This document shows, piece by piece, positions 9,236 to 47,874 of a DNA stretch of 64,000 bases (its first letter is position 1; every line of letters starts with the position of its first letter). The notes beneath the pieces were generated by a model that did not search any database, was not told the origin of the DNA, and was given only the letters and a program-made list of their open reading frames with translations. The DNA is from a virus, in IMG/VR virus record IMGVR_UViG_3300025648_000013. One strand, given 5' to 3'. Position numbers and translations under genes: made by a program.

Positions 9236-9295
9236 TTGACATTTTATCGCGAATCGTCTATTGTCAGAAAGTAGACAAAGAGAGAAAGTGATTCG
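9236..9295 (+). promoter_or_regulatory. Sigma70-type early promoter with paired GANTC sites
   Basis: TTGACA-17-TATTGT; CGAATC in the spacer; TGATTCG at 9289-9295. Confidence 0.8.
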
Positions 9296-9297
9296 CG

Positions 9298-9582
9298 ATG
9301 GTCAAGTTTGAAAAAGCCAACTTCGAATATCACGGTGGATACCTTCACTACAACCACAACGGCGAACGTAAGTTTGTCGCCCGCTTCAAGCATCGTGGTC
9401 CAGTCAACAAGGCTAAGTTTCTTGCGGTTCTGAAAAAGCACTACAGCGTTGACGAATATTTTGCCAAGATTGCTGCTGGTCGCGCTCCTCTTCAGATTTT
9501 TAAAGATGATGGTCTTCTGTCGTTTCATTACGGTGAGCATGGCGCTCACAACTACTTTGTTCTTGATGGAAAGGTGATCTAA
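9298..9582 (+). CDS. Early hypothetical protein
   Basis: Directly downstream of the early promoter and a purine-rich RBS. Confidence 0.7.
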   Translation: MVKFEKANFEYHGGYLHYNHNGERKFVARFKHRGPVNKAKFLAVLKKHYSVDEYFAKIAAGRAPLQIFKDDGLLSFHYGEHGAHNYFVLDGKVI

Positions 9583-9935
9583 TGACTGTTGAAGTACGAA
9601 ATCGTTCCCCAGAATCATGGGGACCACTAGCTGACACTGATGAAAAGACTTTTTGTTCTATTATCAATGGTCGTGATGCCAAAGATAATCTGAAGGCACA
9701 TATCAAGAAGCAGAAGAAACTGAAGACATTTCGGGTGACATACGTCCGTCAACTGGTGTCGGACTTCTTTGAAGTTCGATCGGTAGACAGTTATGGTGTT
9801 GACGCCGCAGCCCGAAAGTTTTATCAAGAAAACAAAGACCAGATTGTGTTTCGTGAAAAGGTGAAGTCCGACTGGGCGAAAAGGTATAATGATGACGAAT
9901 ACGATTCTATTTCTTTTAAACAGGTGAGTAAATGA
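9582..9935 (+). CDS. Hypothetical protein
   Basis: TAATG coupling to the upstream gene. Confidence 0.65.
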   Translation: MTVEVRNRSPESWGPLADTDEKTFCSIINGRDAKDNLKAHIKKQKKLKTFRVTYVRQLVSDFFEVRSVDSYGVDAAARKFYQENKDQIVFREKVKSDWAKRYNDDEYDSISFKQVSK

Positions 9936-10043
9936 AAACTTTTCTATATGCAGCCGGCATTCCTCTGGCTTTATTCACAATCTTTTATGGGCTTCCTCGT
10001 CTGGATCGTGACGGCAAACCCATGTGTAATACAGGAAACTGAA

Positions 10044-10190
10044 ATGACTGTTACTGAAATCGTTAATGAACTTCTACTAGAAATGGAACTTCTAGAAATG
10101 CAAGAATACACGCTAGCCGCTGAAACCATTCGGAAGTTTCTTCGCATCGCCACTCCGATTCAGGTCAAGGCTCTCGAAGATTTCGTTTGA
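10044..10190 (+). CDS. Small hypothetical protein
   Basis: AGGA RBS before the internal ATG of ORF 9948..10190. Confidence 0.5.
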   Translation: MTVTEIVNELLLEMELLEMQEYTLAAETIRKFLRIATPIQVKALEDFV

Positions 10191-10244
10191 CATTATTCAC
10201 GAATCGTGTATGGTGAGAATGTAGCAAAGAGAAAAGGTGATTCG
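10187..10244 (+). promoter_or_regulatory. Early promoter with paired GANTC sites
   Basis: TTGACA-16-TATGGT; GAATC 10201-10205; TGATTCG 10238-10244. Confidence 0.8.
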
Positions 10245-10246
10245 TT

Positions 10247-10612
10247 ATGGAAGTTCAAGTTCTTCATTTTGATCGCGACGGTCTCGGCAATCGTTGGTTT
10301 GAGCATATGGCTACGATTGATCTGTCAAGCTACATGTTTGATAATATGGGAGTAGAAGACGCTCTGGAATATGCCTATCGTCACACTCAGAATCTCGGTG
10401 GTTCCTGGGCGATGGAACGAATGATCGATCATAAGGGCGAACTTTATGAGAATCCCGATTTCAATCCTCATGTGATTGTTGTAAAGCCTCTTGATGGTGA
10501 AAATGGCAAAAAGTGGGGTCATCGCTCGTCTATGGTCGGTGACCGTATGATCATTGATGGTGAAGTTTTTGAGGTTGATACGTTCGGCTTCAAGAATGTG
10601 GAGGGCGAATAA
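10247..10612 (+). CDS. Early hypothetical protein
   Basis: ALEYAYRHTQN...GSW...RSSMVGD, a phage family motif. Confidence 0.7.
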   Translation: MEVQVLHFDRDGLGNRWFEHMATIDLSSYMFDNMGVEDALEYAYRHTQNLGGSWAMERMIDHKGELYENPDFNPHVIVVKPLDGENGKKWGHRSSMVGDRMIIDGEVFEVDTFGFKNVEGE

Positions 10613-10821
10613 TGTCTTTTAATCCTCGTCACGGTGGTCCTTATGATCGTGGTAGTGCTGATGCCTATTATGGTCGCCCCTACAAGCCACACTTTTATGA
10701 AAAAGCTACGTATGCATCACCTCTTGTGGAAAAGTCTGATATGACCCCAGAGCAGATTAAAGAATATGAGGTTGGCTTTTATGGGTTGACATCCATCGCG
10801 AATCGTGCTAGGTATACATAA
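10612..10821 (+). CDS. Conserved phage hypothetical protein
   Basis: RHGGPYDRGSADAYY motif. Confidence 0.7.
   Translation: MSFNPRHGGPYDRGSADAYYGRPYKPHFYEKATYASPLVEKSDMTPEQIKEYEVGFYGLTSIANRARYT
10786..10814 (+). promoter_or_regulatory. Early promoter with spacer GANTC
   Basis: TTGACA-tccatcgCGAATCgtgc-TAGGTA; the -10 is weak. Confidence 0.6.
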
Positions 10822-10839
10822 TAGAAAACGGAGATTGTC

Positions 10840-11076
10840 ATGAACGCAGATTATTTTTCAATTTCAACAGACACATCTTTCATGAACGATGTCTGCACTG
10901 CTTCCAAGATGATCCTAAACACTCCAGAGAACGTTCGCGATATTCCCTGCGATACATGCCCGAACGCTGACATATGCGCTCTGGCCGTGACTGACTGCGT
11001 TGCATCTCGTGTTTGGTACACTACTGGTGATTTTCTTGACAAAGACGTTGCGCGTCTCATCCGAAAGGCTAAGTGA
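10840..11076 (+). CDS. Cys-rich hypothetical protein
   Basis: PCDTC...C...C; GGAG RBS. Confidence 0.6.
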   Translation: MNADYFSISTDTSFMNDVCTASKMILNTPENVRDIPCDTCPNADICALAVTDCVASRVWYTTGDFLDKDVARLIRKAK

Positions 11077-11193
11077 TGGAAACGGAAAAATCATTCTCAT
11101 CCTTTGAAGCACTAACACACTTCTCAGAAGTATATGATCTACTTGACAATATTACATATTATGATCCTATTCGCGGTTGGGTGTTGATTCTCG

Positions 11194-11604
11194 ATGAAGA
11201 TTTCGATGAAGATTATGAAGGTCCTCAGCAAGGTTGCTGAAGCCTCGGAACCGTTTGCTAGGGCCAAGATAGCCGCTGCTCTCGTTTACAAAAACGAAAT
11301 CATCGCGATTGGCACTAACAAGAACAAAACGCATCCACTTCAAGGCAGATATGCAAAACATGAAGAAGCTATATATCTTCATGCAGAAATAGATGCAATC
11401 GCTAACGCACTGCGTAGGCATGATGCTGATACCGTGGCTAAATCCAAACTCTACATCTATCGGTGTAAGTGGACACATAGCAAGAAACCTATGATCACTC
11501 AGGGATTGGCTAAGCCGTGTGAAGGCTGTATGCGCGCTATTGCAGCGTTTGATATCAAGCATGTTTGTTATACATTAGAGGACGAAGGTTATGAGTGGCT
11601 ATAA
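11194..11604 (+). CDS. Cytidine/dCMP deaminase-family zinc protein
   Basis: LHAEIDAI and AKPCEGC. Confidence 0.8.
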   Translation: MKISMKIMKVLSKVAEASEPFARAKIAAALVYKNEIIAIGTNKNKTHPLQGRYAKHEEAIYLHAEIDAIANALRRHDADTVAKSKLYIYRCKWTHSKKPMITQGLAKPCEGCMRAIAAFDIKHVCYTLEDEGYEWL

Positions 11605-12137
11605 TGGGTAAACGAAGTGACTTTGACAGAGTAGAACGTGACTTCTATCCTACTCCGATGAAAGCCGTTCTGCCTCTGTTGCCACATCTGAAGAAGTATT
11701 CTAACTTCTATGAACCATGCGCTGGCGATGGCAGATTGATTGATCATCTTGATTATCACAATCATACTTGTATTGAAGCATGGGATATTGAACCACAAGA
11801 AAAGTGGATTCTACAGTCAAATGCTCTTGACATTCAGTTCAATCCAGTATATTATGGATGGAATATAGATTACATCATCACCAATCCACCTTGGGATCGC
11901 AAGATTCTTCATCCCATGATCGAACACTTCAGCAATCAACTTCCCACTTGGTTGCTGTTTGATGCAGACTGGATGCACACCAAGCAATCATCCGCGCTGA
12001 TGAAACGCTGCGAAATGGTTGTATCTGTGGGTCGTGTAAAGTGGATTGAGGGAAGTAAGACAAGCGGGAAAGACAACTGTGCTTGGTATCTGTTTACAAA
12101 TACAACAAACGCTAAAACTGTTTTTTATGGAAGGTAA
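11604..12137 (+). CDS. Amino (probably N6-adenine) DNA methyltransferase
   Basis: DFYPTP, EPCAGDG (motif I), ITNPPW (motif IV). Confidence 0.8.
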   Translation: MGKRSDFDRVERDFYPTPMKAVLPLLPHLKKYSNFYEPCAGDGRLIDHLDYHNHTCIEAWDIEPQEKWILQSNALDIQFNPVYYGWNIDYIITNPPWDRKILHPMIEHFSNQLPTWLLFDADWMHTKQSSALMKRCEMVVSVGRVKWIEGSKTSGKDNCAWYLFTNTTNAKTVFYGR

Positions 12138-12370
12138 TGATTATGGATAAGTTTATTATTGGTTTGTTTACTGTTTTTGGCACTATCGTTCTCGGTTGTG
12201 CTTATGGTCTGCTGATGGCATGGCCTGTTATGTGGCTATGGAATGCTGATCTTGTTCCTGCTATGACTATTTTGCGCCCTATTGGTTGGATTCAAGCATG
12301 GTGCATCTCGATTCTAGTATCGCTTCTTGGTTCTCATGTGAGTGTGAGTAAAGATTGGAGTAAGGATTAA
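12137..12370 (+). CDS. Small membrane protein
   Basis: Hydrophobic; MWLWN...IGWIQAW motif. Confidence 0.65.
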   Translation: MIMDKFIIGLFTVFGTIVLGCAYGLLMAWPVMWLWNADLVPAMTILRPIGWIQAWCISILVSLLGSHVSVSKDWSKD

Positions 12371-12372
12371 TC

Positions 12373-12687
12373 ATGGCAATCTTTATTATTGAAACTGTTT
12401 CTTCACACCGTATGCGTTATGCGGTAGAAGCACATACTCTTGAAGATGCTAAGAATGAAGTTGCCCTTAAGACATCATTCTATGATGATGACTGGCGTGA
12501 AATGTCACAATATCATATTGGTGAAGTTATCTCCAGTGGTCATGAAGTCACACCTGAAGAATATTTGACTATGTTCGATGAGGACAACGATTATCTCCGA
12601 GACGCATGGCAAGATGAACGTAAGTTTCAACAGATCAATCATATCGAGTATCCTGGCATCAAGGCTATCGATCTGGACGATATCTGA
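12373..12687 (+). CDS. Conserved T4-like hypothetical protein
   Basis: ETVSSHRMRYAVEA...SQYHIGE...FDEDNDYL. Confidence 0.7.
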   Translation: MAIFIIETVSSHRMRYAVEAHTLEDAKNEVALKTSFYDDDWREMSQYHIGEVISSGHEVTPEEYLTMFDEDNDYLRDAWQDERKFQQINHIEYPGIKAIDLDDI

Positions 12688-12706
12688 TTTTTTCTGAAAA
12701 AACTGG

Positions 12707-12734
12707 TTGACATTTATCTCCCTTTTGCTATGAT
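12707..12734 (+). promoter_or_regulatory. Early promoter, same family but without spacer GANTC
   Basis: TTGACAttt-16-TATGAT. Confidence 0.7.
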
Positions 12735-12765
12735 GAGTTATCAGAGAGCGAGAGGGAGATTTTTT

Positions 12766-12960
12766 ATGATCAAGGTTGGTGATTCGGTCCGTTCGTGCAT
12801 TTGGCCCAACAAAGATCGCGTTGGTGTTGTCGCTGAGATTGACGGCGCTCTAATCTCGGTGTTTTTCGGTCGTGAACATGCCCCGCCCTTTCCTGATCCA
12901 TTCTGGTTGTACTGCAAAGAAGAACTGAGGGCCGTTGATCCTCTTGAACTGTATAAGTGA
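12766..12960 (+). CDS. Small early hypothetical protein
   Basis: GAGGGAG RBS; MIKVGDSVR (SH3/KOW-like start). Confidence 0.6.
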   Translation: MIKVGDSVRSCIWPNKDRVGVVAEIDGALISVFFGREHAPPFPDPFWLYCKEELRAVDPLELYK

Positions 12961-12966
12961 GGCTTT

Positions 12967-13536
12967 ATGATTGATCCTGATGTGTATGAAGATGCGTATG
13001 GTCGTCGCGGCTGCAATCCTGTTGATTGTATGTCCTGTGGTGGCAGTGGTGTAGAATATGGTGAAACTTGCATCACTTGTGGTGGTGAAGGTTTCCTGAT
13101 CGATGACGAGGAAGCTATCCTGCAAGATCGTAACATCGTTGAACTGATTCTGGATGAAAAACTGGATGACATCAAGGCTCATCTGCCCGCCGAAGATCGT
13201 GATCGTCTGACTCAGTTTGAGAGCAATATCCATTTTGATATTGCTCGTCGCGTAAGGCTGATTGGCATGAAGCTGGAATATCTCCGTGAGCGTGGTATTG
13301 ATCGTAAAACGTTTGCAATCGATCCGAAGCACAGTGTTGGTGTTGATGCTTTCCTGCGTAGTGTTGGTGTTGATGCTTTCATGCGTCCTATTATTTTCAA
13401 GAACTTTGATAACGACATTATCAGTGGTCTGAAGATTGGTGAAGACGTTCGCAACACGATCCGCAATAACCTTGGTCGCACGGCAAAGTACGAAGCGATT
13501 CGTGATGCTTGGTTTCCTGGTGTAATCTTTAACTAA
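12967..13536 (+). CDS. Hypothetical protein with DnaJ-type CxxCxGxG zinc motifs
   Basis: CMSCGGSG and CITCGGEG. Confidence 0.65.
   Translation: MIDPDVYEDAYGRRGCNPVDCMSCGGSGVEYGETCITCGGEGFLIDDEEAILQDRNIVELILDEKLDDIKAHLPAEDRDRLTQFESNIHFDIARRVRLIGMKLEYLRERGIDRKTFAIDPKHSVGVDAFLRSVGVDAFMRPIIFKNFDNDIISGLKIGEDVRNTIRNNLGRTAKYEAIRDAWFPGVIFN
13333..13386 (+). repeat. 27-bp in-frame tandem duplication
   Basis: AGTGTTGGTGTTGATGCTTTC(C/A)TGCGT twice (SVGVDAF[L/M]R). Confidence 0.85.
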
Positions 13537-13761
13537 GGATGTTCGCGGTGGTAAAGATTCGGTGTAAAAATACGGGTGAGGTGTATGAAGCTGTAGAAAA
13601 CTATAGCGGAGGCACATATAAACAGAAGCGGGGTACTTTTCGCCCATTGCTTCTAGAAGAATGGATTGAAATATCCTGATATCGCCCTGCCTTTTCTCTT
13701 GACAGTTTGTTTTATTTTTGTTACACATTGCGTATACAAGATGTACGAAAGGTCTCTGTAA

Positions 13762-14316
13762 GTGAATATCTTTTATATCGATGAGTCTGCACAGCAATGC
13801 GCTGAGTGGATGGTTGATAAACATTGCGTCAAGATGATCGTTGAGACGGCACAACTGTTGTCTACTGCACATCGCATTCTTGACGGTGATGAGTATGTTG
13901 GTGAATCTAAAACTGGTCGTAAAGCAAAGCGTTGGCGATTGAATGATGGTCGTCAAGATGTTTTGTATTCTGCTAGTCATATCAATCACCCTTCTGCTGT
14001 GTGGGTGCGACAGTCGGTAGAAAACTATAACTGGCTTGTAGATCATCTGTTTGCTCTTGGCGATGAGTACACTTATCGTTACGGCAAGAAACATTCGACA
14101 ATCGAAAAGCTTGGTTATCAGTTGCAGTCTCCACCTTACAAGTTGAAAGAATGGGACTGGACTCCAATGCCTTGCTGTATGCCAGACGAATACAAAGTGT
14201 CAGATGATCCTGTATTGAACTATCGAAACTATTATGTCAATGCGAAGGCATATCTGAAAAGTTATAAGAATCGTCAACCACCGCCATGGTGGCCAGACGA
14301 TTCTGGTGTCTTTTAA
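13762..14316 (+). CDS. Pyrimidine-dimer DNA glycosylase / endonuclease V-like family protein
   Basis: MNIFY...DKHCVKMIVETAQLLSTAH...HINHPS..WVR...EYTYRYGKKH. Confidence 0.75.
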   Translation: MNIFYIDESAQQCAEWMVDKHCVKMIVETAQLLSTAHRILDGDEYVGESKTGRKAKRWRLNDGRQDVLYSASHINHPSAVWVRQSVENYNWLVDHLFALGDEYTYRYGKKHSTIEKLGYQLQSPPYKLKEWDWTPMPCCMPDEYKVSDDPVLNYRNYYVNAKAYLKSYKNRQPPPWWPDDSGVF

Positions 14317-15049
14317 AATTACCAGGGTCGTACATTTTACCACAGTGCTTACATTCTATTTTTGCTGGTTTGGTAAATGATGTAACTTTACGTCCCTTTC
14401 TACTCCTTAGAATTTTTAATTCTTTGGCACGCTCTTCTCCGTGAATTTCTTCATACGTTTTCCCTTTGAGATATTCTTTCGAAACGCCAGTGGTACGTTT
14501 TCGTATTTGTTCTTTTAGCACTTGCGCCTTTTCCTCGCCGTAAATCTCCTCATATCTCTTACCCTGTCTTTTGGAACGCAGAGCGTCTTTCGTAATTTCT
14601 GTATGATGCTTTCCAAGCATTCCTCTCGGATGAGTTTTATCTGGACTTTTATTCCACGACATTAACGAGTTGCTGTCCAATTCTTCTTTCATTTTATCAC
14701 TCCGGCGCTGTCGTCTATTTTTGGTCCAGTATTTTTTCGCGCCTTCTTGCATCTTTTGTTTTTGTACGGTGGATCTTGGAGAACTATTACCCTCTCCACC
14801 CTCGCATACATTATGCAATATTCCGTTTGGATCTATATTTTTCCTACCATACCACCTAATATATCGTCTTTCAAGAGCACATGCTCCTACATTACTAAGG
14901 CGTGTTTCGAGAAATACAATTTTAGATGTGTCTTTAGGAGTAGATATTCTACCATGATCTATAAATGCCCTTGTGCCTTTACCTTTACCGATATAGTATG
15001 GTGTGTTAGCCGAAGATCGTAAATAGGCATATACGTAATAAATAAACAT
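14237..15049 (-). mobile_element. Free-standing GIY-YIG homing endonuclease with NUMOD3-type repeats
   Basis: YYVYAY...PYYIGKGKGTRA...ERRYIRWYGR...N..EGGEG; GKHHTE; own late promoter; antisense overlap with the upstream gene end. Confidence 0.85.
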
Positions 15050-15108
15050 TGCTGGTGCTCCTTAATAGCAGTAGTGCGGTTGGACATGCCACTGTCGCGA
15101 ACCGTATC
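15050..15108 (-). promoter_or_regulatory. Structured endonuclease leader, copy 1
   Basis: Two-stem element plus an SD-containing hairpin; covaries with 56828-56892. Confidence 0.6.
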
Positions 15109-15115
15109 TATTTAT

Positions 15116-15172
15116 ATGAAAACACATCTTCACAAGTGGACTAAGCGTGATGCACCGGAATGGATAGCATAA
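15116..15172 (+). pseudogene. Displaced original C-terminus of the 13762 glycosylase-like gene
   Basis: KTHLHKWTKRDAPEWIA* aligns with the current tail KAYLKSYKNRQPPPWW. Confidence 0.6.
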
Positions 15173-15195
15173 ATACTCCTAAAAAGGAGTATACT

Positions 15196-16113
15196 ATGGC
15201 ACAGTTAAGTGCAGCCGAACTAAGAAAATATAGTTGGCGCCCAGAAGTCTTTATCAAAAAGATTCAAGACAAATCGCCATTTGAAATATCTGGGGGTAAG
15301 AAGGTAACTCTTCTTGCCCCTGCTTCTGTTATTACTACTTTACGTTCAGGATCTAACTCAGAACTAAATGCACTTAGGATTGCGGATATCGAAGGAAATC
15401 TATACAAACTAAGTGATTTTGTAAAAAATAAAGAGTTTGGTGGTAAAGGCGAAGGATCTGGTATGATCAAAGAAGATCGTGCTTTGGCTTCACTTAGAGA
15501 GCAGATAAATAAAGCAAAGACTGATATAGGCAAAGCAACGATACAAATCAAAATAGGAAACACAACCTATGATGTATTTGATGTTGTCTCTACACCAGGA
15601 ACACCAAAGTCAGACTTTCATCTGATAGACAACGACGGTAAAGAAGTTGCATGGATATCACATAAAGACGGCTCAAGGGCAAAAGACTTTCAGCAATGGG
15701 GCGGCGTATCACAAAGCAAAGAGCCGACGATATACTCCGATAGAGAAACACAAGCCCTTATTAAGGACATCAAAAACAAATATCCTAATGGATTGCCCAA
15801 TGTCACAACAGTCGCAAGAAAGATCAAAGAGAAGCGTTTAAAGATGTTGTCTGTATATGGCAACGAATATGGTAAAAGATATAGCCGTCAAAATGTCACT
15901 TTGATGTTACAGGGTGATATCAAGCTATCAAAATCTGGTTCATATTATATCATAACTGCTACTCATACACATTTGAATGGTGAAGATATGACAAATGATT
16001 ATGAACCTGTGTTTATGGCAATATATAAAGGCGATAGAAGTGACTTTGGTATTAGAGGAACTCGCGTCGTTATTGCTCCTCTTGGATGCAGAAAGATTAC
16101 AGAGTTTATATAA
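15196..16113 (+). CDS. Hypothetical protein, possible PD-(D/E)XK fold
   Basis: GTPKSDF...ISHK motif; AAGGAG RBS. Confidence 0.6.
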   Translation: MAQLSAAELRKYSWRPEVFIKKIQDKSPFEISGGKKVTLLAPASVITTLRSGSNSELNALRIADIEGNLYKLSDFVKNKEFGGKGEGSGMIKEDRALASLREQINKAKTDIGKATIQIKIGNTTYDVFDVVSTPGTPKSDFHLIDNDGKEVAWISHKDGSRAKDFQQWGGVSQSKEPTIYSDRETQALIKDIKNKYPNGLPNVTTVARKIKEKRLKMLSVYGNEYGKRYSRQNVTLMLQGDIKLSKSGSYYIITATHTHLNGEDMTNDYEPVFMAIYKGDRSDFGIRGTRVVIAPLGCRKITEFI

Positions 16114-16142
16114 ATACAACATAATCCAGCAATCAAGGCATA

Positions 16143-17306: not shown

Positions 17307-17307
17307 T

Positions 17308-18126: not shown

Positions 18127-18128
18127 TC

Positions 18129-19199: not shown

Positions 19200-19201
19200 T
19201 A

Positions 19202-34005: not shown

Positions 34006-34011
34006 TAATGC

Positions 34012-35619
34012 ATGATTTATGTTTCTAAGCGCGATGGAAGTAAAGAACCACTAGACCTAAACAAGTTCCATCGTGTATGTCAGTTTGCGTGTGAAGGGCT
34101 TTCTGGTGTATCTGTATCAGAACTTGAAATCAAAACAAAGATTCAGTTTCACAATGGCATCACGTCCAAGGACATTCAAGAAACACTGATCAAAGCCGCG
34201 GCTGATCTTATCTCTGAAGAAACACCTAACTATCAATACGTTGCTGGTCGTCTAATCAACTATCAGTTGCGTAAGGAAGTGTATGGACATTATGAACCTG
34301 TATCATTATTTGTTCATTATGGGACCGTAAAAAATGCTGGTTATTATGACAAGGAACTAGATGATTCATATTCAGATGAAGAGTGGATTGAACTTTCCAA
34401 CTACATCGACCATGATCGTGACAATCTTCTTACCTATGCTGCTATGGAGCAGTTTCGTGGTAAGTATCTAATCAAGAATCGTGTTACTGGTCAGTTCTAT
34501 GAAACGCCTCAGATGGCATTCATGTTGATCGCCATGACATTGTTTCAAAACTACAAGAATGACCGTATCAAGTGGGTAAAGGAACTATATGATGCTATCT
34601 CTACATTTGACATTAGCTTGCCTACTCCTATTATGGCTGGAGTTCGTTCTCCTCAGCGTCAGTTTAGTTCTTGCGTGCTTATTGAGTCGGATGATTCTCT
34701 CGACTCGATTAATGCCACATCGTCTGCAATCGTTAAGTACGTTTCTCAGAAAGCTGGAATCGGAATCGGCGGTGGTCGCATTAGGGCTATTGGCTCTCCC
34801 ATTCGCGGTGGGGATGCTGTTCATACTGGCGTTGTACCATTCTGGAAACATTTTCAATCTGCTGTTAAATCGTGTTCGCAGGGTGGCGTAAGAGGTGGTG
34901 CAGCAACCATCTACTATCCTCTTTGGCATCTTGAAGTTGAAGAACTTCTAGTTCTTAAGAACAATAAGGGCACTGAAGACAATCGTATTCGACATATGGA
35001 CTATGGCGTTCAGTTCAATAAGGTGATGTACGAACGACTTCTATCTGGTGGTGTAATCACTCTATTCTCGCCTTCTGATGTGCCTGATCTGTATGAATGT
35101 TTCTTTAATGATAATGACAAGTTTCGTAGTCTCTATGAGAAATACGAACGCAATCCAAAAATCAGAAAGAAGTCTATTCCTGCGATTGATCTATTCTCAG
35201 CTTTCATGCAAGAAAGAAAGGATACTGGTCGAATCTATCTGATGAATGTTGACCATGCTAACGATCATGGTTCATTTGATAAGAAGAAGGCATTGATCAA
35301 GATGAGCAATCTCTGCTGCCTTAGCGGAGATACTTGGATTACGGTTGAGCATTCTGATGGTTCTATAGAAGATATTAAGCTGAAAGATGCTGTAGTTGGT
35401 GATAAAGTTTATAGTAGAAATATCAAGACGGGCAAAAATGAGTTCAAGAATATCAATGCTTCATTGAAAACCAGAGAAGGCGCGAAGGTCATGCGTATCA
35501 CAGACATGGAAACCGGAAACTCTATTGTTTGTACTCCCGACCATCGAGTATACACAAAAAATAGAGGATATGTTGAGGCTAAAGACTTGCTAGAAACAGA
35601 TCAACTGTTAATAGAATAA
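34012..35619 (+). CDS. nrdA: Class Ia ribonucleotide reductase alpha, N-terminal part fused to split intein N-half
   Basis: ATP cone (VSKRDG), PTPIMAG, QFSSC, SQGGVRGG, SNLC; then CLSGDT...CTPDHRVYT..RG.VEA.DL (intein blocks A and B). Confidence 0.93.
   Translation: MIYVSKRDGSKEPLDLNKFHRVCQFACEGLSGVSVSELEIKTKIQFHNGITSKDIQETLIKAAADLISEETPNYQYVAGRLINYQLRKEVYGHYEPVSLFVHYGTVKNAGYYDKELDDSYSDEEWIELSNYIDHDRDNLLTYAAMEQFRGKYLIKNRVTGQFYETPQMAFMLIAMTLFQNYKNDRIKWVKELYDAISTFDISLPTPIMAGVRSPQRQFSSCVLIESDDSLDSINATSSAIVKYVSQKAGIGIGGGRIRAIGSPIRGGDAVHTGVVPFWKHFQSAVKSCSQGGVRGGAATIYYPLWHLEVEELLVLKNNKGTEDNRIRHMDYGVQFNKVMYERLLSGGVITLFSPSDVPDLYECFFNDNDKFRSLYEKYERNPKIRKKSIPAIDLFSAFMQERKDTGRIYLMNVDHANDHGSFDKKKALIKMSNLCCLSGDTWITVEHSDGSIEDIKLKDAVVGDKVYSRNIKTGKNEFKNINASLKTREGAKVMRITDMETGNSIVCTPDHRVYTKNRGYVEAKDLLETDQLLIE
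35317..35616 (+). mobile_element. Split intein, N-half (100 aa)
   Basis: Starts Cys1 CLSGDTWI; block B TPDH; ends at a stop codon. Confidence 0.88.
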
Positions 35620-35683
35620 TCTCTAAAAAGTAAAATATATAAATAGTCATGAAACAACTAAACCTACTATTAGGAAACATTTT

Positions 35684-36385: not shown

Positions 36386-36470
36386 ATATCTGGATCAAAC
36401 AGAAGATGTATATGATATTGAGGTGGAAAAGAACTCAAACTTCTTTGCTAATGGTATTCTAGTACATAAC
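36372..36470 (+). mobile_element. Split intein, C-half (33 aa)
   Basis: VYDIEV...NFFANGILVHN followed by +1 Cys. Confidence 0.9.
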
Positions 36471-37433: not shown

Positions 37434-37545
37434 GGAGTTTTTATTATGCGTTACTGGATCGATATTGACTTTGTTTTAAAAGATGAAACTCATGTTTGGC
37501 GACAAACTTTTCCTGCAAATCAAGTAGAATGGATAGACGAAAGCG

Positions 37546-40258: not shown

Positions 40259-40267
40259 TACAAAGAA

Positions 40268-41414: not shown

Positions 41415-41568
41415 TTGGATCGAATGTTCTATATGTGAAACAGAATACAAGTTGATTAGTAAAGAACCAGGCATACAAGTTGAGTTTTGTCCATTTTGTG
41501 GCGTTGATGCTGATAGCCAGTTCACACCAGAAGAAGTAGACGACGAAGATGAAGAGTTCGACAGTTAA
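41407..41568 (+). CDS. Small zinc-ribbon protein with acidic tail
   Basis: CSIC...FCPFCG; usual neighbour of endonuclease II. Confidence 0.65.
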   Translation: MIDWIECSICETEYKLISKEPGIQVEFCPFCGVDADSQFTPEEVDDEDEEFDS

Positions 41569-41988
41569 ATGGATTATGAAAATCCATGGATCTATGATGG
41601 GGAACCCTTTACTGATGCACAGGCTGATGGTCATTTTGCATTTGTTTACTTGATCACAAATAAAGTTTCTGGTCGAAAATATCTGGGCAAAAAACTCTTC
41701 ACAATGGCTGGATATAAGACTATAAAGGGTAAGAAGAAGAAGATTCGCAAGCCTAGCGATTGGAAGACCTATTATGGTTCTTCTCCAAGTCTGAAAGCAG
41801 ATGTTGAAGATTTAGGCAAAGAAAACTTTTCTCGCGAGATACTAAAAGTTGTTGACAATAGATCATCCGCCAGTTATTATGAAGCGAAAGAGATGTTTGC
41901 TGTGGATGCGATTCTTTCAGATGAATATTATAATGATTGGTGTACTATAAAGATTTCATCGATGCATGTGAAAGCAATCTATAAATGA
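41569..41988 (+). CDS. Endonuclease II (DenA)-like GIY-YIG protein
   Basis: FVYLITN..SGRKYLGKK...SDWKTYYGSS...FSREIL...YYN. Confidence 0.8.
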   Translation: MDYENPWIYDGEPFTDAQADGHFAFVYLITNKVSGRKYLGKKLFTMAGYKTIKGKKKKIRKPSDWKTYYGSSPSLKADVEDLGKENFSREILKVVDNRSSASYYEAKEMFAVDAILSDEYYNDWCTIKISSMHVKAIYK

Positions 41989-42063
41989 GATAGGTTCTGT
42001 CAGTTGTACCTTAAACGACTGTCAAATGTTATAACATTGTTTTATTTTAATGGAGAATACTGA

Positions 42064-42537
42064 ATGAAGAATCTTATGTTTGCCCTCGCGGCTCTTACCG
42101 CTGTTGCTGCTGCTCCTGCAATGGCAGATAGCTTTACTGGTCCTCGTGTAACGGGTGTTGTTGGTTATCAGAACGTCACCGATCTTCCTGCAAATCGTAG
42201 CTTCACCTATGGTGTCGAAGCTGGCTACGATCACAAGCTTGTAGGTCCTGTTACCGTAGGTGTCGAAGCTGGTCTAGACAACGTGTTTGATCGCACCGAT
42301 GTTAACGTTGGTGGTCGTCTTGGCTATGAAGTAACTCCACATACTCTAGTGTATGCCGGTCTAGGTTATGACAACCTCCGTGATCTAGAAGCACACAATC
42401 TCCAGGGTCTTCGCGCTACCGCAGGGCTTGACGTTAATGTGATTGGTCATGTCTCGGTTGGTGCACAGTACACCCACACCGATCTTGGCGCTGTCAAGAA
42501 CAATGGTGCGGCTGGTACGGTCACTCTCCGCTTCTGA
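42064..42537 (+). CDS. Outer-membrane beta-barrel protein (OmpA-like TM family)
   Basis: Signal peptide ending AMA, FTGPRV, YGVEAGYD, GGRLGY, LVYA..GY, terminal Phe. Confidence 0.8.
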   Translation: MKNLMFALAALTAVAAAPAMADSFTGPRVTGVVGYQNVTDLPANRSFTYGVEAGYDHKLVGPVTVGVEAGLDNVFDRTDVNVGGRLGYEVTPHTLVYAGLGYDNLRDLEAHNLQGLRATAGLDVNVIGHVSVGAQYTHTDLGAVKNNGAAGTVTLRF

Positions 42538-42563
42538 TAAATAGAAGACCACACCCCAGTGAG

Positions 42564-42586
42564 AATGCCCTCCGGGGGCATTTTTT
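42564..42586 (+). terminator. Intrinsic terminator
   Basis: AATGCCC/GGGCATT stem followed by a T run. Confidence 0.75.
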
Positions 42587-42590
42587 GTGG

Positions 42591-42649
42591 TTGACATTTT
42601 TATCGAATCAGCTATGATGAAAAAGTAGTCAGAGAGAGAAAGTGATTCG
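42591..42649 (+). promoter_or_regulatory. Early promoter with paired GANTC sites
   Basis: TTGACA-16-TATGAT; GAATC 42605-42609; TGATTCG 42643-42649. Confidence 0.8.
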
Positions 42650-42653
42650 TTTC

Positions 42654-42830
42654 ATGAAAATGTTTGTTGCTCGTAATCACAATGGGACTTTCATTGCTAA
42701 AGGTGTTGACCTTGGAAATCTGATGGAAGAAGTCATGCTCTATGAAGAAGTGACTGGCAATCGGTGCACCGTCGGCCGAGAAGAGTTTGAAGTTGAACCC
42801 AAGCGCAACATTATCGCTGAGGAGATTTAA
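42654..42830 (+). CDS. Small early protein
   Basis: Directly after the promoter and RBS. Confidence 0.6.
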   Translation: MKMFVARNHNGTFIAKGVDLGNLMEEVMLYEEVTGNRCTVGREEFEVEPKRNIIAEEI

Positions 42831-42831
42831 T

Positions 42832-43050
42832 ATGGCTGACAAGTACGGTCGCGGATATACTTTCACCCACGATTGGGCTGGTGGTATTGTTCTTGCTGAA
42901 ACGGAAACGGGCTGGACCATCTATTTTCAGCCTGGCGATGACGCTGCAAAGATTGATGATTATTTCGATCTTCTCGTTGGTGAATGCGGATACGATGGAC
43001 AGTCTGCATTACGAATCATCTGGGAAGAATATAAAGGAATGGCTGCTTAA
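42832..43050 (+). CDS. Small early protein
   Basis: GAGGAG RBS; YFQPGDDA motif. Confidence 0.6.
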   Translation: MADKYGRGYTFTHDWAGGIVLAETETGWTIYFQPGDDAAKIDDYFDLLVGECGYDGQSALRIIWEEYKGMAA

Positions 43051-43051
43051 T

Positions 43052-43450
43052 ATGACAATGCATCTCCTAGGTCCTGCTTATACCACAAACTCAACTAAGA
43101 AGCGTAAGCCGCAACTAAACACGGCGAAGTATGCTCAAGATTGGGTGGACTATAATAAGCAGATGAAGCGGCTTGGTTTTAAAACCAAGACGTTCCAAGA
43201 GTATGTTGCATATCGACAAGGCAATGCCGCATACAAAACAAAGACCGTTAAGACTGGTATGGAAGCTTCCACATACGTTCGCAATGCGCCCAAGTATGAG
43301 ACTGGTGATGGCATCGGTGTGACGTTTGCCAAAGCGCCTAACACATATACGGGCGACAAGCTGCTCGGCATCGCCACGATGCATAAGAGCAATCTGGTAC
43401 CTGTCTTCAGTCAGGAAGACGCGGAAGATATTTCTAAAATGAGGCGATGA
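43052..43450 (+). CDS. Conserved T4-like hypothetical protein
   Basis: YTG..LLGIATMHKSNLVPVF. Confidence 0.75.
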   Translation: MTMHLLGPAYTTNSTKKRKPQLNTAKYAQDWVDYNKQMKRLGFKTKTFQEYVAYRQGNAAYKTKTVKTGMEASTYVRNAPKYETGDGIGVTFAKAPNTYTGDKLLGIATMHKSNLVPVFSQEDAEDISKMRR

Positions 43451-43454
43451 CCGC

Positions 43455-43513
43455 TTGACATTTATCGCGAATCTGTTATGATGAAAATATAGACAATGAG
43501 AAGGAATGATTCG
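43455..43513 (+). promoter_or_regulatory. Early promoter with paired GANTC sites
   Basis: TTGACA-16-TATGAT; GAATC 43469-43473; TGATTCG 43507-43513. Confidence 0.8.
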
Positions 43514-43515
43514 TT

Positions 43516-44241
43516 ATGACTGATATCCAAAGCAAGATCAAGGCTCGCATTCGCGCTCTCTCGGCTAAGACCGTCAAGAATGGTTGCTCGGAAGAAGAAG
43601 CACTTACCGCAATCAACATGGTGGGTAAGTTGCTCTCGCAATATAATCTGTCCATGAACGAGGTCGAACTTCGTGATGAAGTTTGTGACACTTTGAAGAT
43701 TGATATTGGCAGCAAGGTCCGCAACGGCGTCTATTACGCTCTCTCGGATATCGCTGGCTTTACCGATTGTAAGGTGTGGACCAATCGTGGTGCCACTCTG
43801 AAGTATTGCTTCTTTGGTCAAGAAAGCGATCTACTGATGGTGAAGTATCTTTATGATATTATCCTGTCGGCTATGGCAACTGAACTGGCAAAGTTCAAGA
43901 AGACTCCTGAATATAAGGGAGCATATAGCAAGAAGGGTGCTACCAGTTCGTTTACCACTGGTATGGCAATGCGTATTGGTCGTCGTCTGAACGAAATGAA
44001 GGCTCAGATGAACGGCGAAGAAAAAGCTGCACGAGGCGGCAGCAATGCTTTGATTGTTCTGAAGAATCAGGTTGTCAATCAGGCATATCGTGAACTTGGC
44101 TTGCGTCTTAAGAAGAACTATGGTGGTACCACCATTCGTGATGGTGCAGCATATCGCAGCGGTCAGTCTGCTGGTGATCGTGTCAATCTTTCTCGCCCGA
44201 TCAATGGTCCTGGCGGCAATGTTTTGCGCATTGCTGCTTGA
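43516..44241 (+). CDS. DUF2786-domain protein
   Basis: IRAL.AKT..NGCSEEEA...LL.QYNLS; FFG..SD; SF..G; AY..G..AG..V.L. Confidence 0.75.
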   Translation: MTDIQSKIKARIRALSAKTVKNGCSEEEALTAINMVGKLLSQYNLSMNEVELRDEVCDTLKIDIGSKVRNGVYYALSDIAGFTDCKVWTNRGATLKYCFFGQESDLLMVKYLYDIILSAMATELAKFKKTPEYKGAYSKKGATSSFTTGMAMRIGRRLNEMKAQMNGEEKAARGGSNALIVLKNQVVNQAYRELGLRLKKNYGGTTIRDGAAYRSGQSAGDRVNLSRPINGPGGNVLRIAA

Positions 44242-44265
44242 CATTTAAATCGAATCAGTTATAGT
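44238..44265 (+). promoter_or_regulatory. Early promoter with spacer GANTC
   Basis: TTGACA-16-TATAGT; GAATC 44252-44256. Confidence 0.8.
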
Positions 44266-44313
44266 AAAAATATGAGGTCGAGTGGTTCGACCGATTTGAA
44301 AGGTGATTTGATT

Positions 44314-45291
44314 ATGGCACATATGATTGAACAACTCTCTGATGGATCTTTTAGTCATGCATACGCTGGCGATCTGCCCTGGCACGGTCTCGGCTTCAAG
44401 GTCTCTAATGACCTCACTCCTGAACAGATGATGGAAGCTGCTCGGCTTGACTGGACAGTTGACACTGTTCCTCTTCCTGCAATGTATAACGGTCAGAAGA
44501 TCAACACTGGTCACTCTGCTCTGATCCGTAGCAGCGATAGCAAGGTGCTTGACGTTATCACGGATGACTGGAAGCCTCTTCAGAACCTTGAAGCTTTCCA
44601 GTTCTTCAATGATTTTGTTGGCGCTGGTGATATGTCCATGCACACTGCTGGTTCTCTGATGGACGGCAAGATGGTATGGGGTCTTGCAAAGATCAACGAC
44701 TCTTTTGAACTGTTTGGTGGAGACAAGGTTGAAGGCTTCCTGCTCTTCAGCAATCCTCATCAGTATGGTAAGTCGATTGACGTTCGTTTTACTCCCATCC
44801 GTGTTGTCTGCAATAACACTCTGACACTTGCTCTTGGTGGCAAAGCTTCTAACATGGTGAAGATCAATCACCGTCGTGAGTTTGATCCTGATATGGTCAA
44901 GGAAACTCTCGGTATTGCTAGTGATAAGCTTGCTAAGTACAAGGAAATGGCTGCCTTTCTCGGCACCAAGAAATACAGCAATGAAAACATCGTTGAATAC
45001 TTCAATCGTATTTTCCCCAAAACCTCTGACAAGAAGAACTCTGTTGCAGAAAAGGCTGGCCAGTTGCACAGTCGCGCTGCACAGTTTGCGATGGAAGCAC
45101 TCCATGAACAGCCTGGTGCACAGTTTGCAGAAGGTTCGTGGTGGCAGGCAATAAATTCGATAACATATTTGACTGACCACGTTCTTGGTCGGTCAAACGA
45201 TACTCGCCTTGCTTCTGCTTGGTACGGTGTCAATCAAAAGAAGAAGATTGATGCTCTAAATCTTGCGATGGAATACGCTGAAGCTTCTTAA
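44314..45291 (+). CDS. DUF932-family (LGT-associated) protein
   Basis: PWHGLG, LDWTV, QN.EAF.F, TAGSL..GK.VW, TPIRVVCNNTL. Confidence 0.85.
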   Translation: MAHMIEQLSDGSFSHAYAGDLPWHGLGFKVSNDLTPEQMMEAARLDWTVDTVPLPAMYNGQKINTGHSALIRSSDSKVLDVITDDWKPLQNLEAFQFFNDFVGAGDMSMHTAGSLMDGKMVWGLAKINDSFELFGGDKVEGFLLFSNPHQYGKSIDVRFTPIRVVCNNTLTLALGGKASNMVKINHRREFDPDMVKETLGIASDKLAKYKEMAAFLGTKKYSNENIVEYFNRIFPKTSDKKNSVAEKAGQLHSRAAQFAMEALHEQPGAQFAEGSWWQAINSITYLTDHVLGRSNDTRLASAWYGVNQKKKIDALNLAMEYAEAS

Positions 45292-45296
45292 GTCTC

Positions 45297-45325
45297 CTGT
45301 CCTGAGCATGACGGTAAAATGCTCA
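45297..45325 (+). other. Compact H-type pseudoknot candidate
   Basis: Stem 1 CTGTC/GACGG and stem 2 TGAGCAT/ATGCTCA, interleaved. Confidence 0.45.
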
Positions 45326-45344
45326 TCTTCCTGGAGATTATGTT

Positions 45345-45572
45345 ATGAACCCTGTTATTAAGAAAATCGGTGAAAGAACTGGATTATACATGGAAAATCA
45401 CTTCTCTGGTGGTTTTCCTAATGATTCTTTAACTATTGTCGAAGATTTTGCTGAGGAAATTATTAGAGAAGTTATCTCTGTTCTACATAAGCGATACATG
45501 GGTGACCATAATCGAGAAGATATGGAAGTTCTTAATTGTATTGTTGATATTAAAAAACATTTTGGAGTTTAA
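45345..45572 (+). CDS. Small hypothetical protein
   Basis: FAEEIIRE...IKKHFGV phage motif; GGAG RBS. Confidence 0.65.
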   Translation: MNPVIKKIGERTGLYMENHFSGGFPNDSLTIVEDFAEEIIREVISVLHKRYMGDHNREDMEVLNCIVDIKKHFGV

Positions 45573-45576
45573 TAAA

Positions 45577-46344
45577 ATGACTAAAAGTGATAAGATTAAG
45601 TGGGGTCCAGCAATCGACGTCAAGGTAGTCCGCGAGCGGCCCGACTGGCTGAAGGCCAGCGAAATCTGCGCGATCAAGGATCGTGGCACGTGGTTAGGCG
45701 AGGGCGGCACATGCAAGGCGTCGATGTGGTCGGCCATCAGCTTGAGCAGGTCGGCGGCGATGTGGTCCTGGCATGAAGACATCACCCAGATCAAGCTGAT
45801 GGTCGATCATGACTACTACACCTTGCAGAAGTACAACGAGATGTACGGCACGTCCTTCACGTACTGGGGCGGGCAGAAAGAGAAACCCGACGACTGGGAC
45901 GGCATCGCCGTAGTGCTGCGTAATGGCAGTACGATCCCCAGCCCAATCAGTTGGAGCTCCAACTTCTCGGGCAGCCCAATCAGTTGGAGCCACCCATGCC
46001 ACCCTTGGATGAAAGGCGTCAATGGGAAGGGCGACGTCATCGGCTACACGCGCAAGGTGGAACCTGTAACCAAGAATAATACTGAAGAAGCAATCCCGCA
46101 GTGGGCGCTGGACGAGGCGAAGACGCGGTTGAACGAGGAAGTTGGTTGGCATCTTTATACGGCCGAAAGCTCCGCACCCAAAATCCTCGCCCGCATGATC
46201 GTGAAGCTGAAGCAGCCACCTGTTGATCCTGACGAGGAAGCTTTGAAGCGGATACTTAAGACTGTCTGCGTAGTAAAAGAACACTGTGGTGGAAACTGGC
46301 ATTCCGCCCTCGCTCAGTACAAGAAGGAGATTGGCCGTGGTTGA
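45577..46344 (+). CDS. Mosaic hypothetical protein with a GC-rich interior
   Basis: GGAG RBS; marked GC3 shift; 19-bp internal repeat CAGCCCAATCAGTTGGAGC. Confidence 0.6.
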   Translation: MTKSDKIKWGPAIDVKVVRERPDWLKASEICAIKDRGTWLGEGGTCKASMWSAISLSRSAAMWSWHEDITQIKLMVDHDYYTLQKYNEMYGTSFTYWGGQKEKPDDWDGIAVVLRNGSTIPSPISWSSNFSGSPISWSHPCHPWMKGVNGKGDVIGYTRKVEPVTKNNTEEAIPQWALDEAKTRLNEEVGWHLYTAESSAPKILARMIVKLKQPPVDPDEEALKRILKTVCVVKEHCGGNWHSALAQYKKEIGRG

Positions 46345-46531
46345 TAATATGCGAGTTGTGCGTTTTTATAAGAATCGATTCGTGTCAACTACTCAAGGTG
46401 CTGTGAACCAAAAAGAGTATACAGGTCGAACTGAAATCCAAATCAAAGTACATGTTAACAGTGTAGTAGGCGATAAAGTTGTAAGTTCTATGGAATGGCA
46501 AACTGTACCAACTGTAGATATGGAAGGTTGA
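46337..46531 (+). CDS. Small hypothetical protein
   Basis: AAGGAG RBS before GTG; ends EWQTVPTV. Confidence 0.5.
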   Translation: MVDNMRVVRFYKNRFVSTTQGAVNQKEYTGRTEIQIKVHVNSVVGDKVVSSMEWQTVPTVDMEG

Positions 46532-46534
46532 AGT

Positions 46535-46789
46535 ATGTCTTGTAGTGTTCCAGACTTGCTGGTGTCTCTACCAGCCGTCTTAATGTTGGCCATGTTCGTG
46601 TATATCTTTAAGCGACATCTAACGTTGGATGCTGCTTGGAATGAAGGCTTTGATGCTGCTAGTATGACACACGATAATAATAACCCTATCGGGCATATTA
46701 TTGGTCAAAATACTGTTGACAATCATGTTGAAATCATGGTAGAACATAGAGACGGAACATGTGCCCGCTATAGAAAGGTTGAAGTATAA
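46535..46789 (+). CDS. Small membrane-anchored hypothetical protein
   Basis: N-terminal hydrophobic segment. Confidence 0.55.
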   Translation: MSCSVPDLLVSLPAVLMLAMFVYIFKRHLTLDAAWNEGFDAASMTHDNNNPIGHIIGQNTVDNHVEIMVEHRDGTCARYRKVEV

Positions 46790-47046
46790 TGTCATATAAG
46801 ACTGTTGAACTATCGTATGAGCAACTTGATCGGATTGTCTGGAAGACTCTTGAAGAGACCCGAGACAATCTTACTAAAGACCTAGGTGCAAATAACAACG
46901 TGTTTGTCTTTGGTGATCCAGAGGCAGATGATATTGAAATCCAGAAAGCCATTGATGCGTTTGATCTAGTCATTGACTGGTACGTACCACTGGTACAGGA
47001 TTCCAGGAGTCCTGGAATATTCCAGGAGAGTAATCCGATAACTTAA
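46789..47046 (+). CDS. Small hypothetical protein
   Basis: TAATG coupling to the upstream gene. Confidence 0.6.
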   Translation: MSYKTVELSYEQLDRIVWKTLEETRDNLTKDLGANNNVFVFGDPEADDIEIQKAIDAFDLVIDWYVPLVQDSRSPGIFQESNPIT

Positions 47047-47252
47047 AGTATATTGATGGAGAATATGTAATGAAAACGGATGATGGCGGCTTTGGTATTT
47101 GTGTTGTATATCTTTTAATCGGTGTACTAGTAGGATATGCTATCGCATTTGATCGCATTTTGTCTTGTTACTAACACCTGGAAGAATGATGCAATAAAGC
47201 ATCATGATATAAATACCTAGGTATCATTGCCACTTTATAATAGGAGAAAACT

Positions 47253-47468
47253 ATGAGTATTGCATTAGGAATCGCGATTGCTATTATCGCATTTGTCGCT
47301 GGTCTTTTTCTAAGCCCAAAGGCTACCGCTGAAGTTGAACAGTTGAAGGCTGATCTTGCCACTGCTGAAGCAGACATCAAGGATCTGGAAGACCGTATCA
47401 AGGAACTTCTTACTCCAGCACCACCTCCAGCGCCTGCTACGAAGGTATCAAAGCGCAAGGTAAACTAA
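47253..47468 (+). CDS. Small late membrane protein with coiled coil
   Basis: Late promoter at 47208, AGGAG RBS, N-terminal TM. Confidence 0.65.
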   Translation: MSIALGIAIAIIAFVAGLFLSPKATAEVEQLKADLATAEADIKDLEDRIKELLTPAPPPAPATKVSKRKVN

Positions 47469-47509
47469 TCTCTTGACATTTTATCATTGAAGTTTTGGAG
47501 TTTTGAGTC

Positions 47510-47824
47510 ATGTCTTTGATTGCTTTTCTTGAAGATGATGATCCTATGGTCAATGAGATTCAGACATTATCAGAAAAAATTCGCCAAAGACGAATACAGA
47601 TGCTAGTTCATTCATACCTCTATTATGAGATGGATAATAGTATCATTGATGACCACAAATGGCAACAATGGGCAGATGAACTAGTAGAACTACAAAGAAA
47701 GAAGCTTCTGATTGGCTTCTATGATGAAATGTTTAAAGATTGGACGGGCGATTCTGGTGCTTTTCTAAAGTTTGATCCTTGGGTCAAGAAGCGCGCGTTG
47801 CAACTTTTGAAATATAAAAGATAG
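47510..47824 (+). CDS. Stand-alone protein resembling NAD-dependent DNA ligase domain Ia
   Basis: HSYLYYEMDNSIIDD.KW resembles LigA H-x-Y-x-YY-x-x-D-x-P-x-I-x-D. Confidence 0.55.
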   Translation: MSLIAFLEDDDPMVNEIQTLSEKIRQRRIQMLVHSYLYYEMDNSIIDDHKWQQWADELVELQRKKLLIGFYDEMFKDWTGDSGAFLKFDPWVKKRALQLLKYKR

Positions 47825-47843
47825 ATATTGATTGAGTTTGCTC

Positions 47844-47874
47844 TTGACATTTTATCACGAATCGTATATAAATA
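47844..47874 (+). promoter_or_regulatory. Dual early/late promoter of tmRNA with spacer GANTC
   Basis: TTGACA-17-TATAAA, where the -10 is also TATAAATA; GAATC 47859-47863. Confidence 0.75.

Follow-up and report, generated by a model that had tools for sequence, protein, structure and literature searches.

Background

GcrA and CcrM form a known cell-cycle module of alphaproteobacterial chromosomes, and sigma70 promoters that are activated by GcrA and methylated by CcrM have been studied in Caulobacter crescentus (PMC4647560; Fioravanti 2013, PMC3667746). The GcrA consensus is TGATTCG, or more broadly YGAKTCK (Haakonsen 2015, PMC4647560), and the sites of its direct regulon in Caulobacter are 'narrowly centered around -20' and 'from +2 to +30', and hardly any lie at the -10 (PMC4647560). 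Among phages, T4-like coliphages and vibriophages carry repeated early promoter cassettes called PeSLs (Arbiol 2010, PMC2839356; Comeau 2014, PMC4122927), which have been described at indel borders (PMC4122927). Here we analyze a 64,000 nucleotide stretch of viral DNA (IMG/VR record IMGVR_UViG_3300025648_000013; 'the window' below means this whole stretch), in which seven repeated promoter cassettes lying between 9236 and 47874 carry boxes centered on GANTC. Full-text searches of the literature turned up no description of GANTC or GcrA boxes in promoters of phages; what comes closest in print is that phiCbK-like Caulobacter phages encode GcrA homologues (Gill 2012, PMC3556154).

Seven promoter cassettes in the window

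A preliminary description of the window, made from its letters alone, had reported seven TTGACA promoters with CGAATC in the spacer, and all seven read as claimed. They share one plan: TTGACA, 7-8 nt, CGAATC, and then the -10 hexamer. CGAATC ends exactly 3 nt before the -10 in six of the seven, as had also been described, so that GANTC starts 8 nt before the -10 in 6/7; the exception is 10786, where 4 nt separate the word from TAGGTA. The four TGATTCG words reported before start codons were likewise recovered, 2-4 nt 5' of ATG (at 9289, 10238, 42643 and 43507) and with GANTC-to-GANTC offsets of 39, 38, 39 and 39 bp. The hexamers are of sigma70 type (TTGACA and TAnnnT, 16-17 nt apart), and a scan with a generic sigma70 consensus places five of the seven promoters among its top sites, scoring 10-11 out of 12. 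The promoters and downstream boxes, with the open reading frames (ORFs) that follow them, are:

9236-9264, + strand: promoter; -35 at 9236-9241, box CGAATCG at 9250-9256 (GANTC 9251-9255), -10 TATTGT at 9259-9264
9289-9295, + strand: downstream box TGATTCG, 2 nt before the ATG at 9298 of a 94-aa ORF (phrog_22119)
10187-10214, + strand: promoter; box CGAATCG at 10200-10206, -10 TATGGT at 10209-10214; identical in L073 and L174
10238-10244, + strand: downstream box TGATTCG, 2 nt before the ATG at 10247 of a 121-aa ORF
10786-10814, + strand: promoter; box CGAATCG at 10799-10805, 4-nt gap, -10 TAGGTA at 10809-10814; no downstream box
42591-42618, + strand: promoter; box CGAATCA at 42604-42610 (TGATTCG on the bottom strand), -10 TATGAT
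42643-42649, + strand: downstream box TGATTCG, 4 nt before the ATG at 42654 of a 58-aa ORF
43455-43482, + strand: promoter; box CGAATCT at 43468-43474, -10 TATGAT
43507-43513, + strand: downstream box TGATTCG, 2 nt before the ATG at 43516 of a gene for a 241-aa protein (phrog_421)
44238-44265, + strand: promoter; box CGAATCA at 44251-44257, -10 TATAGT
47844-47874, + strand: promoter; box CGAATCG at 47858-47864, -10 TATAAA overlapping a late-type TATAAATA at 47867-74

The pattern TTGACA-N7-8-CGAATC occurs seven times in the window, always on the + strand, versus 0.03 expected from 100 shuffles, and TGATTCG-N2-4-ATG occurs seven times versus 0.74 expected. Because the cassette copies are homologous repeats, shuffles are the wrong null model, and conservation in relatives is better evidence than these counts. 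The preliminary description had also proposed counting GANTC against expectation and by location. Window-wide there is no bias (226 sites, about 233 expected from base composition), but the sites are concentrated between genes, at 7.3/kb in intergenic DNA versus 3.3/kb in genes; TGATTCG is about 11 times denser there (1.96/kb intergenic versus 0.18/kb). At least three strong sigma70-like intergenic promoters (12707, 31294, 48857) have no spacer box.

Conservation of the boxes in relatives

Scanning viral contigs with the promoter pattern retrieved 93 stretches, many of them 93% identical to and syntenic with the window and others diverged. Two further relatives, L174 and L175, found independently through a small methylase gene described below, bear the same cassettes. 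In G002, a diverged relative whose genome is complete at 171.6 kb, the promoter-plus-box pattern matches 14 times in the forward direction and never in reverse or in the control, and G414, a second fragment of the same clade, has eight matches.

Within the spacer, good conservation in these relatives is limited to GA.TC. The related viral contigs also hold 132 promoter-like sites outside the search pattern: 27 of these have GANTC beginning exactly 8 nt before the -10, every other spacer position holds 0-1 GANTC, and a second cluster lies +30 to +34 from the start of the -10. When 33 cassettes were picked by their downstream box alone, an upstream box was present in 22, and the spacer positions G, A, n, T and C carried approximately 0.8, 1.4, 0.4, 1.2 and 1.2 bits of information, with 0-0.6 bits at their neighbors. 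Orthologous alleles tell the same story on a finer scale, in that flanks, central base and even the -10 differ whereas GA.TC is kept (42591 versus L090; 43455 versus L090 and L063). The L090 orthologue of 42591 has both flanks and the -10 altered yet retains CGAATC; the 43455 orthologues in L014, L051, L063 and L090 read CGATTCG at the same spot; and relatives of 10786 (L010, L035, L085) retain both the box and its 4-nt gap. Promoter 9236, which scores 10/12 in the consensus scan, is near-identical in L034 and L079.

The window and its relatives together yielded 147 unique cassettes: both boxes are present in 48, the upstream box alone in 33, the downstream box alone in 27, and neither in 39. 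The upstream words are mostly CGAATCG or CGATTCG, with CGAATCA and TGATTCG also found. The downstream 7-mer is TGATTCG in 50 of 75 cassettes and its reverse complement, CGAATCA, in 10; the bases that precede TGATTCG differ (GG, AG, AA, GT) while the word itself is constant. Relatives at the 42643 site read GATTCGAATC-ATG, and in the window the corresponding word of 44238 has decayed to TGATTTG (44304-44310), before the ATG at 44314 of a phrog_1221 protein. Conservation extends over the whole 65-bp cassette, including a conserved leader.

The preliminary description had presented the two boxes as an inverted pair of fixed geometry, and the relatives do not bear this out. Both boxes are found in either orientation; inverted, direct and mixed arrangements are all present; many cassettes have a single box; and offsets range over 36-42 bp, 39 being the most frequent (24 of 47). 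The inverted orientation with a 39-bp offset is thus the commonest state and no fixed rule. From these flips, single boxes and varied offsets, the sequences indicate that the boxes are words on double-stranded DNA, used singly or twice, rather than an obligate inverted pair, an RNA hairpin or a translational operator.

An extra GAATC at 9227-9231 lies immediately 5' of the -35 of promoter 9236, and a third GANTC, again GAATC and 2-4 nt 5' of the -35, occurs at 82517, 84808, 153707 and 156718 of G002 (L183, L184). At 47478-47512 a half or decayed cassette consists of TTGACATTTTATCA lacking a -10, followed by GAGTC directly before an ATG; another, at 11148-11196, has TTGACA and then TGATTCT, which stops 2 nt short of the dCMP deaminase ATG. 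In an intergenic gap at 46376-46393, a 10-bp palindrome, GAATCGATTC, made of two abutting GANTC adjoins a minus-strand TTGACA at a spacing unlike that of a promoter.

GcrA as the likeliest reader of the boxes

If transcription is taken to start 7 nt after the -10, the boxes fall at -20 to -16 and at about +19 to +25 relative to this predicted start. On one strand or the other, YGAKTCK is matched by 60 of 68 downstream boxes (88%) and 53 of 81 upstream boxes (65%), against 25% by chance. The main support for GcrA as the reader is that word, position and tolerance of orientation all match GcrA promoters. Reading of the early-promoter boxes by the host GcrA/CcrM system is, in our judgment, the best single explanation, with roughly an even chance of being correct.

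The mechanism we infer, in which start sites, early timing, methylation, GcrA binding and the effect on transcription are all predictions, would run as follows. Each of the seven sites would be a host-type (sigma70) early promoter cassette, a repeated PeSL-like unit running from a promoter through a short conserved leader and ribosome-binding site to an ATG, with one or two double-stranded boxes whose GANTC is flanked as in YGATTCG. The likeliest reader would be the host RNA polymerase cofactor GcrA, riding on sigma70 domain 2, binding GANTC that carries N6-methyladenine on either side of the -10 and speeding open-complex formation. The injected phage genome would need GANTC methylation, supplied by host CcrM or by a phage enzyme, and early genes would fire best in hosts that contain GcrA. 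The cassettes thereby suggest that the phage ties its first genes to the host GcrA system. The earlier proposal that the early program is wired to GcrA and host methylation accordingly gains partial support, from the conserved GANTC with YGAKTCK flanks, the two GcrA zones and the alphaproteobacterial host signal (below), and loses its fixed inverted pair.

A more elaborate version, which we hold to be decidedly unlikely, makes the boxes an epigenetic gate. Only DNA fully methylated at GANTC and newly injected into a GcrA-containing, replicating host would fire the early cassettes; with the build-up of progeny DNA in unmethylated or hemimethylated form, early transcription would fade unaided, replacing a missing switch of the AsiA/MotA type; and phage timing would be read from the methylation state of the DNA together with the cell-cycle phase of the host.

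Several observations weigh against GcrA as the reader. Since conservation covers the entire cassette, with the initial transcribed GTAGNCAGTGAGA and a purine tract, the boxes may owe part of theirs to a repeat evolving in concert. The position of the downstream box follows the ATG (a 3-nt gap in 55 of 75 cassettes) more closely than the -10. About one third of cassettes have no upstream box and show one-mismatch relics such as TAATC, and the upstream box is therefore not essential. The only methylase-like gene is a 180-aa core enzyme shared with box-less relatives, and neither the window nor G001 nor the complete G002 yielded a gene for GcrA or a PF01555 protein; the search for gcrA and ccrM homologues that the preliminary description had suggested thus came back empty for the window and the relatives searched, one of them complete at 171.6 kb. 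Strict matches to the promoter-plus-box pattern number 0, 0 and 1 in Cr30, phiM12 and vB_OspM_OC, cultured T4-like phages of Caulobacter, Sinorhizobium and Ochrobactrum, where a looser pattern shows a weak excess. Two related clades with the cassette in common were the only ones in which the pattern turned up in multiple copies, and a lineage-specific phage factor would fit this confinement equally well. A second viral scan, for TGATTCG on the top strand in the spacer, gave single matches at about chance level, so that the boxes are not shown in unrelated phage lineages, and other promoters in the loci it retrieved have a weak rise at -8/-9 only (7/232). Five alphaproteobacterial genomes gave 0-1 matches to the strict pattern, a result without information value, as promoters in these genomes diverge widely from the E. 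coli-type consensus.

If the GcrA reading is true, these cassettes would be the first class of phage promoter built on a host methylation reader, and they would offer a candidate answer to how early genes are timed in T4-like phages without AsiA and MotA. In practical use, the box would serve as a host marker, readable from sequence, for uncultured phages.

Alternative explanations

Behind the GcrA reading we place two accounts of equal rank, each of which we consider unlikely though worth weighing, and behind these a role at the RNA level. One of the two takes the boxes to be operators for some other DNA-binding protein, most plausibly a phage regulator that shuts off or switches on the early cassettes in the course of infection, though a phage methylase could also be the binder; the likeness to the GcrA word would in this account be coincidental. 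Sites at about -18 and +21 flank the region held by RNA polymerase, which is a common location for a repressor, the upstream consensus CGAWTCG is a perfect 7-bp palindrome that would suit a dimer, and the multi-copy pattern is confined to related T4-like clades sharing the cassette, being missing from Cr30, phiM12 and vB_OspM_OC. An AsiA search of the complete G002 found no match, a result to be read with the fact that the same search matched nothing in any control genome either. Yet no candidate box-binding phage protein was identified, and the account must put down to chance an exact match to the TGATTCG/YGAKTCK word and to both GcrA zones. Many cassettes carry a single box (33 the upstream one, 27 the downstream one), and the 36-42 bp offsets, variable and off helical phase, speak against cooperative binding to a pair; the phage factor on the inverted repeat that the preliminary description had put forward is weakened by these spacings and by the flips, leaving a binder of single boxes as its surviving form. 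The other account dispenses with a dedicated reader: the words would be part of a PeSL-type repeat homogenized by recombination and gene conversion, and may in addition be intrinsic promoter or ribosome-binding elements. It is favored by conservation of the entire 65-bp cassette, by boxes that can decay without loss of the cassette, and by cassettes standing at indel borders between relatives that are 93-97% identical. In L014, L051, L090 and L005, cassettes mark the breaks between blocks that share 92-98% identity with the window, and the inserted DNA bears more cassettes; L014 (2698-9652, compared with window 44242-44313) has about 7 kb extra between genes 43516 and 44314, with cassettes inside it and at its edges. 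GGTGAT just upstream also overlaps what we take to be a Shine-Dalgarno-like word (16S 3' end), which we count on the same side. Concerted evolution would explain the likeness of the whole unit, yet it does not explain why only GA.TC is conserved in the spacer while its neighbors and central base drift, or why orthologues keep the core and rewrite the flanks. TGATTCG also stays constant though the bases before it vary, and the same 7-mer is flipped at both places, for which neither homology nor an RNA role accounts.

In T4, hairpins of the lysozyme, soc and I-TevI type hide the start codon in read-through transcripts. An RNA-level signal of this kind, in which the two arms pair in a read-through transcript and hide the start codon, or in which UGAUUCGUUAUG is an operator for RegA, strikes us as highly improbable for the boxes. 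Cassette 9236 does form a strong fold (z -4.6, -25.2 kcal/mol), in which GATTCGCGAT and GTCAA are the partners of TTGAC and ATCGCGAATC, but the other three two-box cassettes fold no better than shuffles (z -0.1 to -1.6), and the L034 allele, 98% identical, replaces CG by TC on the 3' side of the 9236 stem and would thereby lose two pairs. No compensatory changes preserving the pairing were seen across relatives, and the hairpin was rejected as a general device, since only 9236 folds and its fold is not conserved. For RegA, the consensus aaAAUUGUUAUGUAA from in vitro selection (SELEX) with the T4 protein (PMC3014915) resembles AUUCGUUAUG, RegA is encoded in G002, and the downstream box commonly lies 3 nt from the ATG (55 of 75). 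A RegA operator is A+U-rich, unstructured RNA at or just 5' of the AUG in fixed orientation; here the downstream word contains G and C, its resemblance to the selected consensus is partial, and it is flipped in 10 of 75 cassettes to CGAAUCA, a different RNA, so that this candidate too was rejected. Direct-repeat arrangements (L175; G002 148333 and 161371) also tell against an RNA signal, as does the upstream box, which lies outside the transcript begun at its own promoter.

Two inverted repeats in this setting can be recorded for themselves. The extended repeat at 9236-9305, particular to this copy, would bury the ATG in a read-through transcript. In a distant relative, L177 (9919-9990; also L179 at 9390), a box-less promoter has a 14-nt inverted repeat between its spacer and the bases before the ATG, and thus lies inside a potential start-codon hairpin.

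Host and phage identity

Three lines of evidence point to the host, the first of them carrying most weight: a block of captured host-derived DNA at the start of the window, the type of its transfer-messenger RNA (tmRNA) gene, and the nearest phage relatives.

1-1112: captured host-derived block recognized by protein and DNA matches, including a SulP fragment at 147-800 (minus strand)
47882-48159, + strand: permuted (two-piece) tmRNA gene (Rfam RF04321, 74.9 bits, E 1.5e-12; permuted tmRNA by ARAGORN)

The best matches of the SulP fragment are all Alphaproteobacteria, the top one at 67% amino acid identity. The block is not present in close relatives, whose alignments with the window begin at 1109. 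Its nearest genome among those compared is G007, a metagenome-assembled genome of an uncultured alphaproteobacterium (68-77% DNA identity), which codes for GcrA and for two PF01555 (CcrM-type) methylases. A permuted tmRNA is characteristic of Alphaproteobacteria and of a small number of other groups. The protein encoded at 43516 has its sole cultured-phage homologues, annotated DUF2786, in phages of Rhodobacteraceae, Sinorhizobium and Brevundimonas. Taken together, these signals make it very probable that the host is an alphaproteobacterium.

By its gene content the window is from a T4-like myovirus. It has 41% G+C, with nearly all genes on the + strand, and a Pfam scan of 86 window ORFs identified gp32, T4 baseplate proteins, the gp33 late co-activator, RNase H and the gp5 OB domain, as well as SegE-type endonucleases, ribonucleotide reductase, ThyX, PhoH and an ADP-ribosyltransferase; virion proteins and a baseplate tail tube cap came from a PHROGs search. 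No cultured phage, close or remote, proved related to the window in DNA searches, and a 71-nt cassette matched cultured phages at chance level only. By protein comparison the closest cultured phages, about 28% identical, are those of Sinorhizobium (phiM12, phiM7 and phiN3). An intein- or HINT-like segment (Pfam Intein_splicing and PT-HINT, residues 452-534) forms the C-terminal end of the ribonucleotide reductase large subunit (34012-35619).

All cassettes but 42591 (6/7) abut or overlap the end of the preceding ORF, and 42591 is preceded by a terminator-like hairpin, ATGCCC-N5-GGGCAT followed by T5 (42565-42586). Promoter 47844 drives the permuted tmRNA gene, and since its TATAAA -10 overlaps the T4 late-type TATAAATA, the phage tmRNA may be expressed both early and late. 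Promoter 10786 starts a run of + strand genes that includes dCMP deaminase and, about 0.8 kb 3' of the promoter, the small methylase gene:

11595-12137, + strand: 180-aa adenine-methylase-like protein with motifs FYPTP, EPCAGDG and NPPW (phrog_799 'DNA methyltransferase', E 2e-33)

The protein has no target-recognition domain, and no sequence match in Pfam, NCBIfam or PDB would reveal its target. Its AlphaFold2 model (mean predicted local distance difference test score 88) finds its nearest folds in the catalytic cores of HsdM, M.TaqI, M.BseCI and CamA, consistent with a gamma-type adenine-methylase core. Homologues are numerous in metagenomes (6853, 170-185 aa) and include phages without boxes; because it is also present in box-less relatives such as L177, the methylase is not linked to the boxes. 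It is a purely speculative candidate for an enzyme that would mark the phage DNA.

Comparison with known systems

The cassettes can be set beside four described systems. Like the T4 lysozyme, soc and I-TevI hairpins, cassette 9236 has its promoter between two arms that pair over the ATG; unlike them, the hairpin here is neither general among the cassettes nor conserved. The resemblance to PeSLs is broader, both being repeated units of sigma70 promoter, Shine-Dalgarno sequence and ATG placed before small variable ORFs and at indel borders. The stem-loop that PeSLs have upstream of the promoter, however, precedes only one of the seven window cassettes (42591), and PeSLs as described have neither GANTC boxes nor a factor-binding word and occur in phages of gammaproteobacteria. 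The phiCbK-like phages offer the other precedent of a phage possibly engaging the GcrA module of an alphaproteobacterial host; those phages carry the GcrA protein, whereas here there are candidate binding sites and no GcrA gene was found.

The Caulobacter GcrA promoters are chromosomal and have been studied, while the phage boxes are known from sequence, with the host uncultured, and lie in a virulent T4-like phage as a repeated cassette with near-consensus -35 and -10 hexamers. What the phage boxes share with the Caulobacter sites is a promoter of sigma70 type, the TGATTCG/YGAKTCK flanks, placement in the same two zones with none over the -10, and use in either orientation.

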